Positions 10,892-19,174 of a stretch of DNA of 24,885 bases are shown in pieces (positions within the stretch are counted from its first letter, which is position 1; every line of letters begins with the position of its first letter). Both the position numbers and the translations under genes were made by a program. Location of the stretch: the UHGV virus genome UHGV-1445333. One strand, 5' to 3'. A model generated the notes under the pieces. The model was not told the origin of the DNA, ran no database searches, and saw only the letters and a list, made by a program, of their open reading frames with translations. This DNA is from a virus.

Positions 10892-11553
10892 GCGCCTTCT
10901 CCCTGTACCTGAATCAATGTGAGGTTTCCGCAGAACACCGCGCCGGTATCGATATACATCTGGTTGGCAAATTTGAGTGGTTTCACTGCTGGCGTATGAC
11001 CAAAGATGAACGTGTCCGCTCCTTTGATTTCTTTCACGATCCCGTCTTGTGAGTTGCTGATTCGTTCGCGGTTCCAGATTACCTGCTGATGATCAACTGG
11101 CTTTCCAAATTCGTATTCGTCACAAGGATAATCGGCGTGGCAGATGACATATTTTTTATCTTTGCTCACCAGTTCGATGATTAGCGGAAGTTCATCTGCT
11201 TTATGGGCAAGAGCTTTAGCCAGAATTTCTTTGTCGTAATCGAGATTAAAGAACCAGCCACCGCCATTAAGCTGCCAGTGATTAACGTTTCCACGCTCTG
11301 ATAAGCCATCAATCATCATTTGCTCATGGTTTCCACGTACAGATCTGAACCAGGGGAATGTGATTAATTCCAGGCATTCGACGTTCTCTGTACCGCGATC
11401 AACCAAATCGCCCACTGAGATAAGCAGGTCTTTTTTGGTGTCGAATCCTATCGTCTCCAGTTTTTTCATCAGGTTCGTGTAGCATCCGTGCAGATCGCCA
11501 ACTACCCAAATATTTCGGTATTTGCTGCCATCAATTTTTTCGTAATAGCGCAT
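10882..11553 (-). CDS. ninI: Ser/Thr protein phosphatase NinI, 223 aa
   Basis: Track ORF trimmed to ATG at 11553 ([25 protein letters not shown]...); GDLHG and GNHE metallophosphatase motifs; matches lambda NinI from memory. Confidence 0.9.
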
Positions 11554-11737
11554 CTCTTTCACTCCATCCGCGATGAACCATGAGAACGTCGTTGACGATG
11601 GCGTGCATTTTCCCGTCTTTATCATCAACGTATTTTCTGACCGTGCCGCGACTACATTTCAGTCTGCGTGCTACTTCTGTCTGGTTTCCGTATGCTTCAA
11701 CGAGCATGTCTGGAATGGTTTTTACTGAGAACGTCAT
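11531..11737 (-). CDS. ninH: NinH, 68 aa
   Basis: Product [37 protein letters not shown]... matches lambda NinH from memory; ATGA overlap with the ninG stop. Confidence 0.88.
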
Positions 11738-12336
11738 GCGGCCTCACTTCTGCTATTTCGCAGGTCTTTGAGTTTCTGTTGGTACTCTGCCTTGATCGCC
11801 TTGCACTCTTCGATAGTCCAGCGATGGCGGTTATGGTTTGATTCGATTTCGTCTACTGCTTCCTGCCCGATGCGGCTAATCAGTTCGACGCGATACGGAA
11901 CGAGATTTCCGCTTTTGTGCTGGTTGCACACCACGCATTGCTTGTGAATATTGCGTTCATCAAATCGGAGTTGAGGTGCCGCAGCAGTTGTCCGGTAATG
12001 TCCGGCATCCCACTGAGCAGACGTGAGCGTTCCGCACGAGATACATGGTAAGTCGCGGTCTCTTTCTCTGATGAAGGCGTTTACGGCTTGTTGGGCTTGT
12101 TTAATCCAGTAACTGCGGGGCTTTAAGGCGAGTTTTCGAATCTTAAGTTTATCTTTCTGTTTCTGCTCCTCTCGTCGCCGTTTCTTCTCTGCTGCTTTTT
12201 CCGCTTTTTCGCGTTCTTTGCTTCGTCGTTCGAGTGCTATCTTTGTTCCACAAATCTCATTACACCAATATTGATTTTGATATTTTGGTATAAACCATTC
12301 ATTGCAACATTTACATTTCCTTCGATAGATTCGCAT
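11734..12336 (-). CDS. ninG: NinG (Rap) recombination endonuclease, about 200 aa, with a divergent N-terminus
   Basis: From [18 protein letters not shown]... to the C-terminus it matches lambda NinG from memory; start set at ATG 12336 (strong SD AAGGAG, 5-nt spacer); the first 28 residues ([29 protein letters not shown]) differ from lambda but keep the Cys pattern. Confidence 0.8.
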
Positions 12337-12850
12337 AAGTGCTCCTTTCGTTGCCGGAAAAATCACCGTAATACTTATCTCGGGCTTCTTCAGCAACTAG
12401 TACCGCTAACTCCAGATCATCAAAGCATCCGAAGTGTTTACTCTTGCCATGGAAACCTAGCCTAACATTCCATTTTTTCTGTCGTTTGTGCCAAGTAACT
12501 CCTCTGCAACCTGATTTGCTATTCTTTCGGATCCTTATATTTCTTGAATTTTCTATTGGCAGGCATTCTCTTAAATTTTCTGGCCTATTGTCGGTCCTAA
12601 TTCCATTAACGTGGTCAATTTGACCAGCAGGCCAACGATTATGAGTTATGTAAAAAACTAAGACGTGAGTTTTATATCTACGCCCATCTATCATGATCAT
12701 TGAATAACCGTTGGAATCAAAAGTTCCAGCAACACTATTTAATGCTATCCTTCCCTGAGTGGGAACTTTCCATCTAAATACCCCGGTAGATTTATCGAAA
12801 CTTAGTAACTCAAATATCCTTTTAACAGTTAAATCTTCTCTTTTACGGTT
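12255..12850 (-). mobile_element. Putative endonuclease insertion cassette within the 5' end of ninG (approximate boundaries)
   Basis: About 0.6 kb of visibly AT-rich sequence carrying the HNH ORF and a replacement ninG 5' end, flanked by sequence I recognise as lambda-like (ninF/ninG start upstream, ninG from GTKIALERR downstream). Confidence 0.5.
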
Positions 12851-12877
12851 ACATCGTCTTCGCGCTGGTTTAGCCAT
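12311..12877 (-). CDS. HNH homing endonuclease with AP2-like DNA-binding domain, 188 aa, fused to the first 9 codons of ninG
   Basis: HNH motif ([26 protein letters not shown]) plus AP2-like segment ([15 protein letters not shown]...[17 protein letters not shown]); starts MAKPARRRC, the lambda NinG N-terminus, at the ATG overlapping the ninF stop; AT-rich relative to neighbours. Confidence 0.8.
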
Positions 12878-13046
12878 CGTCTTCTTCCTCGTACATTGAG
12901 CTATTCGGATCGCTCATCAGTTCTGCGCAGCAGTGCTCACACACGTGAACTTCCAGCACATGCAGCTTCTGACCGCAGTTAGCGCACGTTAAAGCCCGCT
13001 CGACGCTTTCTTTCTGGTATTGAAGGGATTGGGATGGGCTAAGCAT
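12870..13046 (-). CDS. ninF: NinF, 58 aa
   Basis: Translated by hand codon by codon: [58 protein letters not shown], matching lambda NinF from memory; not in the ORF track because it is under 60 aa. Confidence 0.75.
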   Translation of the reverse strand: MLSPSQSLQYQKESVERALTCANCGQKLHVLEVHVCEHCCAELMSDPNSSMYEEEDDG

Positions 13047-13404
13047 TATTGGCGTCCTGCATCATGAGAAAGACAATCATGGCAGCGCGGAGTGGGTTTT
13101 CATCTTGAGTCATATGATATGGGGTACTATCACTGCCAACTTTTCTATGCGCTGCCTTCCATAATCCATTTTCTGGCGCTGGAATAATGCCAATTCTGTT
13201 CTCTACGATAATCGGCTCTGCGTCTGACGGGCTTTTACAGTAATCAACCGTTTTTATTGCATAACCAGTTTCGTCATCCCACTCAACACCAACGATTGAT
13301 GTTCCCAACTTTGCGATTTCGCAATCTTCGGGAGCAAATCCACAGCAAATTGCCACTCGCTTGTTAATTTCAAAATCACTTAACTGTGAATAATCCATTG
13401 TCAT
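13039..13404 (-). CDS. nin-region protein of unknown function (DUF2591-like), about 121 aa
   Basis: Track ORF 13039-13440 (GTG start) trimmed to ATG at 13404, which overlaps the ninE stop (ATGA); product [18 protein letters not shown]... resembles small nin-region proteins of lambdoid phages. A second in-frame ATG at 13398 has the better SD spacing. Confidence 0.55.
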
Positions 13405-13577
13405 TTCCTCGCACGATGTCTTAGCCACCGGATATCCCACAGGTGAGCCGTGTAATTGAAGGTTTTTACGTCAGATTCTTTTGGGATTGGCTTGCGTTTA
13501 TTTCTGGAGCGTTTCGTTGGAAGGTATTTGCAGTTTTCGCAGATGATGTCGGTGAAACTTCGTCGCTGTCGTCTCAT
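13401..13577 (-). CDS. ninE: NinE, 58 aa
   Basis: Translated by hand: [58 protein letters not shown], matching lambda NinE from memory; ATGA overlap with the ninB stop. Confidence 0.7.
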
Positions 13578-13984
13578 TCGTACCTCCTGTCGGTAAATCT
13601 GACACCCTGACCAATAGCCCAGGATGTTGTGTACTCGATCAGACTTGCCATACGCTTCACGCTCATCTGCGCGCTGCTTTCGCGAATGTTGACGTATTCG
13701 CCTTCAAGGCCGGGCAAAACATCAGCTTCCTGTTTTGTTGCCACTGCATGACCGCTGATCAACAAAACCTTCCATTGTTCCGGTTTTAACCATTTGCCGC
13801 ACCATTGAACCTGACGTGCGATATCCGCCAGCATCGCGTGAAATTTTGCGTTCTGGTCAAGGTTGCGCTTGTAGTCAATAATGCGGATGGTGACTGGCTT
13901 GTCTTTATCGAGTGGTGTTGCGAGGATGGCGTTGATTGCGGCTTGCTGTTGTTGCTTAGTTCGGAGGAATATTGTTTGCTTCAC
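13574..13984 (-). CDS. ninB: NinB (Orf-family recombination mediator), 136 aa
   Basis: Conserved block [25 protein letters not shown] aligns with lambda NinB LDQNRKLWACLGDVSRQVEWHGRWL; first gene of the nin cluster. Confidence 0.8.
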
Positions 13985-14747: not shown

Positions 14748-16628
14748 TTAATACTCCGTCACGTTTTCCTGTCGCCACGCCTCGTCATATTCCGATTTCG
14801 GCATATTGGCGATGTAGCTATATGGCGATCCTGATTCAAGTTGCAGGAACTGGTGCGATTGCTCGTCAAGGAACAACGGGACACCACCTTCCCAACCTTC
14901 GCCGTTACGTTGTTTTTCAAGCATCAAAACAGATGCCGGAGATGCCAGTAGCTGTTCGTCCTTCTCTGACATCTTTTCACCACTCTGAACTCTCTGTAAC
15001 GCTCTCTCGCGAGCCTTGTTACGCCAGATGATGAAAAGGTTGTCTGTCAGGTCTGTTATCGCTCCAGAGCCTTTTACGTCCATTTTCCCGGTTGGTTTTT
15101 CTTCGCTGTCACCTTTTCGCGAGTGAGTAACGAGAATGACGTGGGAGTTTGTTTTGTTTTTGAAATCGCAAATCGAGTCAACAAACGCCTTCTGCCCGTT
15201 ATAGTCATCGTCGCCTATGCCACATTTCATCAGGCTGTCGATGATGAATAACTGGATGCCGTATCGGCGGCGAGCGTAGTCGAATATTTCGATCAGCCTG
15301 TCGGCTTTCGCCGTTCCGGTCAGGCCAAACACCCAAAGTCTTTCGTCATAAAATTTAAATGCAGAGTCAATTTCCAGCACTGGCGGCATCTTGCAGCACG
15401 TCGCCTGACGGGTAAGGCGCTTAAGGAGAATACCAGGCTTCAGCTCAAGTGACGCGATGCACGTCTTCACACCCTGACGCATTGCCTCAAGTGCCATATG
15501 CCCGACAACCTCCGTTTTTCCGTGACCGTTCACACCATTGACCAGCGTCAACTCTGCCTCACGGAACTGGAATTTATCTGCCAGAGATTCCCACGGTGGA
15601 TTAAACAGATACTGCTGCTTGCCGTAGAAAGCGTTGATAGTGTCCTGGTAAAACTCTCGCGCACTGTAGAGTTCTTCAGGATCGAAGTAGGATGCCGTGC
15701 CGATGTACTGCCAGATTTCATCCTCGGTAACACCGTTCATCAGGCATTCGTTGATGTCTTTGTACGGCAGAGTAACAAGACGGCAACGATGTTCACCGAG
15801 TCGGCTTGCGATTTCCCTTGCGGCTTCACGACCAACATCATCAACGTCCATCGAGATGAATATTTCCTCAAACCTGTCGAGGTTGTGGTACTCAAACTCA
15901 ATCCACTGTTGCTTAGCGCCTTTCCCGCCACCAAACGGCACGGATAACGCCGAGATGCCGTATTGCGCATAGCTCATACAATCAATTTCGCCTTCGCAAA
16001 GTACAACCGCCCTCACGCCAGCGTCCAGAGCCTGCCATCCGAACAGACAAGGTTCGCAATCACCTTCTGCCATAATGACTTTCTTCCCGTCCGGGCGCTC
16101 AGTGCTGATTCGCTTGACCTGCAACAACTCACCATCGCGTTTGTACGGAAGCACCAGTGCATCAAGTTCTCGTTCTCCATTCCACACCTTGCCGCTGACA
16201 ACCTCGTAGCGCTTTACGACTTCTGGCGATATGCCACGCGATTGCAGGTACTCAAGATGGGATTCTGTTCTGGTAACGTAGCGGGCGATTTTCTTGCGGT
16301 CAGGTCTGGAGAATTTCTTCTCACGTCTGGCATCGAAATGGTGATCGTCATCCTTGATTCCGAGAAAGGCTTTCGCTTCCTGCATAGCCTGATGCAGGTT
16401 AATTCCACGACATGCCATCCACAAATCAAGCATGTCACCGCCGTCTCCCTCAGCGAAATCAGCCCATTTTTTCTTGCCGCTAAGGTTGACCTTAAGGCTG
16501 TTTCCCTTGTCACCGTTGACGTTACCGGCAACCCACTCATGCCCCTCTTTCTTGCCATTTGGCAACAGGTGCGGAGCCACCCTGTCAACCTGCGCCCAAA
16601 GCAGGTCGCTAAGTTCACTTGGCCTCAT
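14748..16628 (-). CDS. Bifunctional DNA primase (TOPRIM) / DnaB-family replicative helicase, 626 aa
   Basis: TOPRIM-like acidic motif (VVLCEGEIDCMSYAQYG) in the middle; Walker A (NGVNGHGKTE) and Walker B-like (LFIIDSL) in the C-terminal half; follows the O-like initiator in place of lambda P. Confidence 0.85.
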   Translation of the reverse strand: MRPSELSDLLWAQVDRVAPHLLPNGKKEGHEWVAGNVNGDKGNSLKVNLSGKKKWADFAEGDGGDMLDLWMACRGINLHQAMQEAKAFLGIKDDDHHFDARREKKFSRPDRKKIARYVTRTESHLEYLQSRGISPEVVKRYEVVSGKVWNGERELDALVLPYKRDGELLQVKRISTERPDGKKVIMAEGDCEPCLFGWQALDAGVRAVVLCEGEIDCMSYAQYGISALSVPFGGGKGAKQQWIEFEYHNLDRFEEIFISMDVDDVGREAAREIASRLGEHRCRLVTLPYKDINECLMNGVTEDEIWQYIGTASYFDPEELYSAREFYQDTINAFYGKQQYLFNPPWESLADKFQFREAELTLVNGVNGHGKTEVVGHMALEAMRQGVKTCIASLELKPGILLKRLTRQATCCKMPPVLEIDSAFKFYDERLWVFGLTGTAKADRLIEIFDYARRRYGIQLFIIDSLMKCGIGDDDYNGQKAFVDSICDFKNKTNSHVILVTHSRKGDSEEKPTGKMDVKGSGAITDLTDNLFIIWRNKARERALQRVQSGEKMSEKDEQLLASPASVLMLEKQRNGEGWEGGVPLFLDEQSHQFLQLESGSPYSYIANMPKSEYDEAWRQENVTEY

Positions 16629-16735: not shown

Positions 16736-17596
16736 TCACCTGTCGAAAAACACGTAGCCAGTTTTCGATACGGTGATTGCGGATGATGGTTTGGATTGTG
16801 GTTGAATAGTTTCTGGCTTCTCGTCGTTCCAGCGTTGACCGTTCAGGTAGCTCGATGGTAACAACCTGTCGAATCCGAACTGCTTACCATTCCTGCATGC
16901 GATGTCTTCTGCCAGCATCGTGGCAAACTCGCTTGCCGTACCCCTGGTAGTTTTACGCCATTCCCTGAACTGTGTTCTGAATGCCGAAGCTGCGTTTTTC
17001 TTCCCGGCCTTCCGCATGCCTGCACACCAGAATATTTCCTCGAATGCCTTGTCGGTTTCTTCGTGACGGTCAGGTGATTTTTCACACTCCGTCCGAACAC
17101 TTTCGGACATAGTGTTTTTATTATTTCTTTTTTCTTTTGTAATAGTTTCTTTTGTGTGTCCCTGTTTTGGTGACAGCGCTGTCACCGTTTTGGTGACACT
17201 TTTTGTCACCAATGCAGTGACATTATCACCAGAGTAGTGACACCCTTCGATTTGCCATTCCTCGATGTTCTTGTTAGGCCCGATTTGCTGGCCTTCGCGA
17301 AGGATAACCTTCATCGCGATAAGCTCATTCTTGGCTTTGTTTACCTTCTGTCTTGGCAGCCGGGTAATTTGAGCTAACTGACTATCAGAGATGCGATCCA
17401 TCTTTTTACCGTAGCCGTATGTTTTACGGCATATGGCGTGGGCAACCTTGCTCTGATTTTTCGTTAAATCTGCGCCGATAAGCTCTTCATACAGGGCATT
17501 TGCAAGACGGGTATAACCATCTTCAACTTCTGCCACACGACGCTCCACAGGCCGTTGTGAAGGCCTTAAATGTGTTACGGTTGCAAGATTACTCAT
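16736..17596 (-). CDS. O: Replication initiator, lambda O-like, 286 aa
   Basis: N-terminal domain [55 protein letters not shown] aligns with lambda O (DGYARLSNMLLEAYSGADLTKRQFKVLLAILRKTYGWNKPMDRITDSQLSEITKL); iterons lie inside the gene as in lambda. Confidence 0.82.
17105..17246. repeat. Replication origin: four iterons with a roughly 22-23 bp period plus an adjacent AT-rich tract, inside the O-like gene
   Basis: GGTGACAGCGCTGTCACC (17169-17186), GGTGACACTTTTTGTCACC (17192-17210), GCAGTGACATTATCACC (17214-17230), GTAGTGACACCC (17235-17246); AT-rich 17105-17160 follows in the direction of O transcription, as in lambda ori. Confidence 0.6.
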
Positions 17597-18457: not shown

Positions 18458-19174
18458 ATGGAAAATAAAAAATCACTGACGACAGAACAGCTGGAAGACG
18501 CTAAGCGGCTTAAGGCTTTGTATGAGTCAAAAAAGAAAGAATTGGGAATAACCCAATACTCAATCGCTGATGAACTGGGTATCACCCAAGGAGCGGTAGG
18601 GCATTATCTTAATGGCAGAAATGCGCTAAACGTTGAGGTTGCATCTGGTTTTGCACGATTGTTGCAAGTCTCAATTGCTGATTTTAGCCAGTCAATTGCT
18701 GCCAAGGTTGCAGAACAGGCAGAAAGCCTTAAGAGCGATGCCAACGTAAGGTATGCAGGGGAATACAGAGCAGGAAAGAGGTATCCGGTGTTAAGCAGTA
18801 TCCAGGCTGGCTCGTGGTGTGAAGCATGCGAACCATACACCATTAAAGACATAGATGTTTGGCTTGAGTCTGACGCGCATATTCAAGGTAATGCGTTCTG
18901 GCTTAAAGTGGAAGGTGATTCAATGACGGCACCGGTTGGGTTAAGCATTCCAGAGGGAACATTCGTTCTTTTCGATACCGGAAGGGAGGCGATCAACGGC
19001 AGCTTGGTCATAGCAAAACTTTCTGACTCTAACGAAGCAACATTCAAGAAGCTGATAATCGACGGCGGAAATAAATACCTCAAGGGACTTAATCCTGCAT
19101 GGCCTCTCGTGCCAATCAATGGAAACTGCAAGATTATAGGCGTTGCAATTGAGACAAAACTCAGACTGGTTTGA
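18458..19174 (+). CDS. cI: CI repressor (HTH plus S24 LexA-like autocleavage domain), 238 aa
   Basis: N-terminal block LTTEQLEDAKRLKALYESKKKELG parallels lambda CI; Ala-Gly cleavage site (SIQAGSW), catalytic Ser in GDSM and Lys in FKKL; no SD, consistent with a leaderless pRM transcript. Confidence 0.9.
   Translation: MENKKSLTTEQLEDAKRLKALYESKKKELGITQYSIADELGITQGAVGHYLNGRNALNVEVASGFARLLQVSIADFSQSIAAKVAEQAESLKSDANVRYAGEYRAGKRYPVLSSIQAGSWCEACEPYTIKDIDVWLESDAHIQGNAFWLKVEGDSMTAPVGLSIPEGTFVLFDTGREAINGSLVIAKLSDSNEATFKKLIIDGGNKYLKGLNPAWPLVPINGNCKIIGVAIETKLRLV

Follow-up and report, generated by a model that had tools for sequence, protein, structure and literature searches.

An HNH/AP2 nuclease gene on the captured start of ninG: a probable homing-endonuclease cassette with a surrogate 5' end in lambdoid phages

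Introduction

In the virus genome UHGV-1445333, an open reading frame (ORF) for an HNH endonuclease begins at the place where ninG, a recombination gene of lambdoid phages, is expected to begin, and ninG itself begins again farther downstream with a different N-terminus. How did a nuclease gene come to use the start of another gene, and how was that other gene kept complete? The whole stretch of 24,885 nucleotides (nt), called the window here, was analysed; it is locus L036 of the IMG/VR set (IMGVR_UViG_3300045988_000937). A preliminary description, made from the letters alone, had read the arrangement as a homing-endonuclease insertion that brought a replacement 5' end for its target gene, and this reading is supported by the comparisons described here, from which we infer endonuclease activity and homing; what it had described in the sequence is confirmed throughout. 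The explanation considered likely is that a free-standing homing-endonuclease gene entered a lambda-type ninG once and is now a fixed cassette of 596 nt with a co-converted, presumably cleavage-immune surrogate 5' end. The architecture of the cassette and its single origin are regarded as nearly certain.

The cassette and its two junctions

The features of the window on which the argument depends are as follows.

12870-13046, minus strand, NinF, 58 amino acids (aa), Pfam NinF 1.8e-12
12311-12877, minus strand, HNH ORF, 188 aa, 567-nt coding sequence (CDS)
12849-12877, minus strand, original ninG start, 29 nt ATGGCTAAACCAGCGCGAAGACGATGTAA (MAKPARRRC plus two bases), now the start of the HNH ORF
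12253-12848, minus strand, foreign block of 596 nt replacing 64 nt (nt 30-93) of ordinary ninG, defined by alignments
12342-12347, minus strand, Shine-Dalgarno (SD) sequence AAGGAG for the restarted ninG, 5 nt ahead of its ATG and within the 3' end of the HNH ORF, read from the sequence
12311-12336, minus strand, overlap of 26 nt between the HNH and ninG ORFs, where the HNH C-terminal tail lies over the new ninG start
12253-12336, minus strand, surrogate ninG 5' end, 28 codons
11734-12336, minus strand, NinG (rap), 200 aa, 603-nt CDS, Pfam NinG 7.5e-86

The ATG of the HNH ORF (12877-12875) overlaps the stop codon of ninF, as ATGGCTAA, and the TAA of that stop overlaps codons 2-3 of the HNH ORF; the earlier view of this ATG as the native ninG start is confirmed. 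From 12877 to 12849, the sequence agrees with nt 1-29 of lambda and of Sf101 ninG at 29 of 29 positions, and divergence follows directly. The match of the nine residues MAKPARRRC to lambda NinG, noted in the preliminary description, holds against the real sequences and, given this identity at the DNA level, is therefore not due to chance; the peptide is the N-terminus of Sf101 NinG and corresponds to residues 2-10 of the lambda NinG annotation. Other NinG proteins start with MAKPARRKCK (933W), MAKLPRRKCK (SPN3UB) or MAKVPRRKCK (SI23), and a MAKPARRRC-like start occurs in none of the 15 HNH relatives aligned, which begin about 11-15 residues further in. Judged from these alignments, MAKPARRRC is native to the NinG family. 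The insert thus begins after nt 29 of ninG, and the nuclease ORF is fused in frame to the ninG ATG and first nine codons. The final ~16 nt of ninF, GAGGAAGAAGACG, read as the SD region for this chimeric start. In addition, the HNH ORF has no other start codon (no internal ATG) ahead of residue 59, and the nuclease therefore depends on the ninG-derived start.

Where the window has the 596-nt block, uninterrupted phages have only the 64 nt of ninG nt 30-93. The junctions were read by eye and then confirmed with exact-string searches, and the boundary alignment that the preliminary description had proposed fixes the foreign block at 12253-12848. On its right side, near-identity (97-99%) to ordinary ninG resumes at TGTGGAAC.AAGATAGCAC, from position 12252 downward, and continues through the end of ninG; this body is of the lambda/Sf101 type (~99% identical). 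The intervening 0.6 kb had been called AT-rich, and the GC profile agrees: the content is 37.4% over 12250-12848, as against 49.8% in the ninG body and 51.4% in ninF (about 50% in the flanks). The HNH gene has 38.9% and the surrogate ninG 5' end (12250-12336) 28.7%, a value far under that of the HNH gene, which suggests either that the donor was very AT-rich or that selection favoured an initiation region without structure.

The restarted ninG has its ATG at 12336-12334, 541 nt downstream of the first ATG and behind the AAGGAG at 12347-12342, in agreement with the restart about 540 nt downstream that had been described. Its 28 surrogate codons are only distantly related to the lambda-type patch (about 48% identity in amino acids and about 55% in DNA). 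Nevertheless, in an alignment of seven sequences (the new N-terminus and NinG of lambda, Sf101, 933W, SPN3UB, a Proteus phage and an Edwardsiella phage), the invariant residues are R6, C8, C11, W14, F15, P17, W24, C25 and G30, and the surrogate retains every one of them, including C8, C11 and C25 of the Cys pattern noted before. The restored protein matches Pfam NinG (PF05766) with 287 bits over profile positions 5-192 of 193. By these comparisons the surrogate 5' end is predicted to restore NinG at full length, conserved Cys and aromatic residues included. PGAP annotates the identical 567-nt HNH CDS and 603-nt ninG CDS in E. coli E21845.

The cassette region gave no promoter-like site, and therefore both genes should be read from the operon transcript. 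Two terminator-like hairpins were seen, both on the non-coding strand and at chance level, and none on the coding strand. An Rfam scan of 11500-13500 (E <= 1) gave no RNA family and no group I or II intron. An intron or intein was considered as an explanation of the interruption and rejected, because there is no Rfam intron and ninG is restored by a new SD sequence and ATG, not by splicing.

The HNH/AP2 protein

The frame that leaves the ninG start had been said to run into an HNH/AP2 endonuclease, and two domains could indeed be placed in it.

12557-12676, minus strand, HNH_3 catalytic core, residues 68-107, Pfam HNH_3 (PF13392) 4.2e-11
12359-12511, minus strand, AP2-like DNA-binding domain, residues ~123-173, three strands and a helix

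The domain search proposed for the 188-aa protein gave HNH_3 with 42.7 bits, above the cut-off of 24.8, and the protein also matches phrog_99, an HNH endonuclease family, at 1.4e-71. D88, H89, N101 and N110 are invariant columns among the 15 relatives and are intact in the window protein; they are the catalytic residues of the beta-beta-alpha-metal fold (the D-H general base, a structural N and a metal-binding N), all of which are present. Pfam AP2 (PF00847) stays under its cut-off of 33.3, with 22.2 bits (E 1.8e-4), and several HNH relatives have a precomputed PF00847 match. An AlphaFold2 model of the protein has a mean predicted local distance difference test (pLDDT) value of 82.9, and its AP2-like region has a three-stranded sheet packed on a single helix, with strands at 127-130, 135-142 and 145-152 and the helix at 155-173, at pLDDT of about 85-95. 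In Foldseek searches, the best PDB match of the nuclease domain is I-HmuI (1u3e, 99 columns, probability 1.00, E = 0.01), and the C-terminal part matches AtERF1 (1gcc) with a root-mean-square deviation of 1.3 Å over 51 columns and TMt 0.67, followed by the further AP2 matches WRINKLED1, ERF96 and TEM1; the Foldseek E-values are weak (0.01-0.2), but the list of matches is coherent. His-Me finger Group 2 proteins (HNH_3, I-HmuI) have been described as homing endonucleases with AP2 as a specificity module (PMC5714182).

The HNH relatives begin about 11-15 residues inside the ORF and end about 10 residues before its stop, and the pLDDT falls below 50 exactly at residues 1-11 and 181-188. Therefore, the N- and C-terminal tails are by-products of the insertion. 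In a search of 5.8 billion proteins, the identity of HNH relatives shows a gap between 47% or less and 99%. The two nearest relatives lie in unrelated contexts, one after a T7-type endonuclease I and the other on a 1.5-kb contig without ninG. The nearest one found, P0004 (44% identical; L193 1033-1927), overlaps the end of the T7-type endonuclease I gene on a T7-like metagenomic contig. T7-type endonuclease I is a Holliday-junction resolvase, and the HNH enzyme of the window and P0004 both adjoin phage junction-resolving nucleases.

The PADLOC defence models gave a single 24-residue HNH-motif match to ZorE (E 0.007, 14 bits); membership in a defence system was rejected, as this motif was all that was matched.

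Distribution of the cassette

Of 5,426 complete E. coli genomes, 538 contain the HNH-specific 509 nt, at 99% identity or more in every case, and 538 contain the 88-nt surrogate 5' end; a joint query of both is covered to at least 80% in 537 genomes. The cassette is therefore present in about a tenth of the complete E. coli genomes, Stx1 prophages included. Among the matches listed for the 88-nt surrogate, every one is annotated with both NinG and HNH endonuclease. When the new, MRIY-type NinG N-terminus was compared by tblastn with 50,697 phage records, identity of at least 99% was found solely in AU6Stx1 and SH2026Stx1, both of which carry the HNH gene, and all others were at 65% or less. In IMG/VR, the HNH gene lies directly upstream in 48 of the 48 contigs that encode the new N-terminus. 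The new 5' end without the HNH gene was seen neither among the matches listed nor in any IMG/VR contig. The preliminary description had left room for two other outcomes, namely that uninterrupted phages share this ninG N-terminus and that the HNH gene is a common free-standing gene with an unrelated start. Neither was borne out; the phage records, the IMG/VR contigs and the linkage of the HNH gene with the surrogate in the E. coli genomes speak against the former.

The left junction is identical in all 54 readable junctions of the 55 HNH-carrying IMG/VR loci. A search for ninG-encoding stretches gave 565, and uninterrupted ninG genes number in the hundreds; thus the insert is present or absent at one precise site in otherwise homologous genomes. 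The hosts of the cluster members are E. coli, E. albertii and Salmonella serovars Infantis and Rubislaw. The cassette is carried by Stx1 prophages of O157:H7 directly upstream of Q and stx; an EDL933 assembly is one example. Some records name the HNH protein 'NinG'.

Up to three copies of the cassette are found in E. coli genomes. One genome (IMG 2690316149) has it twice, at L026 and L065, in the Stx1-type context and behind a full ninF. One hit, H280, in which 58% of the 5' patch was matched, was taken up as a variant right junction and rejected, being an IS2 insertion in ninG.

Genetic backgrounds and sequence diversity

The carriers are of two very different kinds, P22-like phages with a full ninF and Stx1 Traversvirus phages with a 16-nt remnant of ninF. 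The former context comprises 18 loci with at least five ninF variants 45-60 nt upstream, and the latter, that of the Stx1 prophages, 36 loci in which only the last ~16 nt of ninF, which bear the SD sequence, remain upstream. Over 48 HNH-carrying loci, the nucleotide diversity is 0.0038 in the cassette (16 haplotypes) and 0.034 in the ninG body (31 haplotypes), a sweep-like pattern in which diversity falls about 9-fold from the ninG body adjoining downstream to the cassette. On the right side, ordinary polymorphism returns within 6-30 nt of the junction, on the left side within 2-15 nt, and several ninG bodies behind the cassette are 0-1 nt from HNH-less alleles. The replaced 64 nt are well conserved among 77 HNH-less alleles (diversity ~0.015). 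The common polymorphisms of the HNH ORF are synonymous (G32G, I63I, G126G, G141G and G144G).

Some STEC (Shiga toxin-producing E. coli) prophages have a dead ninG behind the cassette, by a change of codon 36 from GAA to TAA in L043 and L052 and by an insertion sequence (IS) in L007 (1596-2876, IS2) and L011, and in L062 the HNH gene is frameshifted by a 1-nt deletion at nt 221. Not every copy is under selection.

Origin and spread of the cassette

If the cassette is a homing element, its formation and spread could have proceeded as follows. The left junction would come from a single illegitimate in-frame join, which gave the nuclease the translation start of its target. The right junction would be a crossover where good conservation first sets in (TGTGGAAC.AAGATAGCAC), and a distant ninG allele of the donor phage would be the source of the surrogate 5' end. 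With the ninG start, the nuclease ORF also took over ninF-coupled initiation and the ribosome-binding site at the end of ninF, and the cassette would be read within the N-antiterminated early-right (nin) transcript. During lytic growth, the enzyme may cut or nick ninG alleles without the HNH gene, in lambdoid genomes that co-infect or share the host, within the ~64-nt stretch, and the break would be repaired from the HNH-carrying copy by Red, RecA or Rap-type recombination, with ninF and the 29 nt as homology on the left and the ninG body on the right, by which the cassette would be copied into the cut allele. The carrier allele itself would be immune, its target stretch being replaced by the diverged surrogate as a co-conversion tract. 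The carrier indeed lacks an intact insertion-site sequence, the 64 nt being replaced by a patch that is about 45% divergent, and these 64 nt appear from the alignments to be the obvious candidate for the recognition or cleavage region.

The best reading of the distribution is that the cassette spread across P22-like and Stx1 prophages after a single entry. A uniform element in several backgrounds, the signature of lateral spread, is what was found, but general recombination could yield the same pattern. That the element is homing at the present time is judged only somewhat more probable than that it is not; here we infer cleavage and biased inheritance. Several observations weigh against homing as the cause of the spread. 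Lambdoid phages recombine freely, and a neutral module could reach many backgrounds. The polymorphisms of the HNH ORF number 9 synonymous and 12 non-synonymous, the latter mostly singletons, which amounts to modest constraint, and a few copies are altered at invariant residues (N101S, P83T) or frameshifted. The haplotype of a cassette (sites 378 and 423) corresponds almost perfectly to which of the two contexts lies upstream, and therefore transfers between the two contexts have been few. Among the 538 E. coli genomes, clonal STEC lineages that have been sequenced heavily predominate, and therefore the prevalence overstates the number of independent spread events. Moreover, no donor phage with a free-standing copy was found in the searched collections. 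A 40-aa query of the new NinG N-terminus returned solely E. coli fragments of the same allele, and a degenerate pattern for it had no match in 100,044 species-representative genomes.

Some of these points also favour the main rival explanation, according to which one illegitimate capture of an HNH gene and a foreign piece of ninG was followed by clonal STEC descent and homologous exchange, the nuclease being inactive or irrelevant to the spread. The same single junction is found everywhere, sub-haplotypes of the cassette follow the upstream context, the carriers listed for E. coli are mostly STEC, the nin region is known as a classic mosaic and has further modules at this boundary, and some copies are decaying (ninG nonsense, IS2, HNH frameshift). 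Nevertheless, such a passive module is considered rather unlikely, as the protein retains its catalytic motif and the variants common in its gene are synonymous, and the 9-fold drop in diversity occurs exactly at the cassette edges, with normal polymorphism in the flanks a few bases away. Furthermore, the in-frame capture of the start, the 16-nt SD-bearing remnant of ninF and the compensating SD and ATG of ninG argue that both genes have been kept expressed.

It is also conceivable that the nuclease is kept for damaging competing lambdoid phages or co-resident prophages by marker exclusion and does not copy itself. The family and the architecture are the same as those of homing enzymes, expression from the early-right operon would coincide with co-infection, and the Seg and Mob enzymes of T4 cause localized marker exclusion. 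This is held to be very improbable: no defence-system match beyond the 24-residue ZorE motif was obtained, and exclusion and homing are mechanistically the same cut and differ in the selective reading only. The reverse polarity, in which ninF-HNH-ninG is ancestral and lambda-type ninG arose by deletion of the HNH gene, has nothing beyond its formal possibility in its favour and is effectively refuted. A deletion cannot create lambda codons 10-31, in which ~45% of the bases differ from the surrogate; starts like MAKPARRRC belong natively to distant NinG proteins and do not occur in the HNH relatives; and the cassette is foreign in its base composition and has far lower diversity than ordinary ninG. 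Entry of a homing-endonuclease gene into a lambda-type ninG, with co-conversion of the surrogate 5' end, is the preferred explanation.

Relationship to known systems

SegF, SegG and MobE of T-even phages are free-standing homing endonucleases that bring about 'intronless homing'. Like them, the ninG cassette has an endonuclease gene outside an intron or intein, present or absent between collinear phage genomes, and the flanking target of the carrier is diverged, the flanking sequence having presumably been co-converted with the gene. Unlike them, its gene is inside the target ORF, not intergenic, and uses the start and nine codons of the target; in addition, the cassette supplies a surrogate SD sequence, ATG and 5' coding end, and its hosts are temperate lambdoid phages. 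In Aeromonas phage Aeh1, the insertion of mobE reportedly splits nrdA into two genes, and the two polypeptides are said to reassemble. The two cases would have in common a homing endonuclease gene within a phage coding sequence with the host function retained, but ninG, unlike nrdA of Aeh1, stays one full-length protein by means of a replacement N-terminal segment, and nine codons are left behind. Elements which carry a surrogate end of their target gene are also represented by phage 21 and e14 in icd and by tRNA-gene integrases. As in phage 21 and e14, the interrupted gene is restored by a diverged duplicate of the displaced end; those elements use a site-specific integrase and replace the 3' end, whereas the cassette replaces the 5' end and the translation start, and its engine is presumed to be double-strand-break repair. 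The protein itself resembles I-HmuI and the HNH_3 group in its core D-H…N…N and has a C-terminal AP2-type module as in HNH-AP2 endonucleases (PMC5714182; Magnani et al. 2004 cited there), whereas I-HmuI is intron-encoded and has NUMOD and helix-turn-helix modules, and the window protein has tails made by the insertion.

The gene is not new: 'HNH endonuclease' is its usual annotation, and O157:H7 genomes that contain it have been publicly available for years. In the literature, no paper was found that treats the gene as a ninG insertion or describes its chimeric start or the surrogate 5' end; neither HNH nor NinG is mentioned in the genome announcement of SH2026Stx1. What is unusual about the cassette, found as it is in temperate lambdoid phages, is that it has captured the start of its target gene and provides that gene with another start and N-terminus. 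Much work on homing endonucleases has been done with lytic phages, among them T4, T7-like phages and SPO1, and to our knowledge hardly any with temperate lambdoid phages. The cassette would be a natural and genetically tractable case within the lambda toolkit, where the empty site is lambda ninG and the filled site is defined, and it is an unusual solution for an insertion within a coding sequence without killing the gene. If the nuclease is active in the Stx1 prophages, it could stimulate recombination between Stx prophages and other lambdoid prophages resident in the same cell. With regard to annotation, the cassette explains the HNH protein labelled 'NinG' and the odd ninG N-terminus in carrier phages.

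Variation at the ninF/ninG boundary

The boundary of ninF and ninG is a hot spot for alternative modules. A NUMOD4-type HNH endonuclease may be followed by a small Cys/His protein and RusA, a KilAC antirepressor may occur with DUF1364 and RusA, or an 89-aa ORF may precede an intact lambda-type ninG. The loci with such modules are the following.

L004 2574-3710, E. coli EBJ001
L006 2574-3945, E. coli EFF60
L005 1574-1843, E. coli A11

Each of these other genes after ninF (KilAC, the NUMOD4 HNH gene and the 89-aa ORF) has as its start exactly the ATG overlapping the stop of ninF, and any ninG that follows is intact; therefore, the insertion within ninG is a different kind of event.

Codons ~1-35 of ninG (12230-12336) are hypervariable on an almost invariant body, and all alleles join one and the same sequence. 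At least five N-terminal alleles exist (lambda/Sf101, 933W, SI23, S.Kent and the HNH-linked one), and those compared are located as follows.

L197 1186-1300
L199 1495-1610
L200 195-310
L002 1722-1830

The N-terminal alleles may be footprints of earlier conversions or of escape from target sites. Tentatively, and with more doubt than belief, it can be supposed that the cassette is an active 'start-capturing' homing element, which takes over the translation start of an invaded gene at the price of providing a portable, cleavage-immune surrogate 5' end, and that the hypervariability of the ninG N-terminus is the footprint of repeated conversion and target-site escape under the action of this and earlier endonucleases in temperate lambdoid phages, Stx prophages included.

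Gene order around the cassette

The cassette stands in an early-right operon of the lambdoid type, of which all genes are on the minus strand except that for the cI-like repressor. Besides NinF, the HNH ORF and NinG given above, it contains the following.

18458-19174, plus strand, cI-like repressor
16736-17596, minus strand, O
14748-16628, minus strand, Toprim/DnaB-like primase-helicase
13574-13984, minus strand, NinB
13401-13577, minus strand, NinE
13039-13440, minus strand, NinX
11531-11737, minus strand, NinH
beyond NinH in operon order, NinI-type phosphatase and then Q

The 626-aa Toprim and DnaB-like primase-helicase stands where lambda has a P-type gene and adjoins the O-type initiator.

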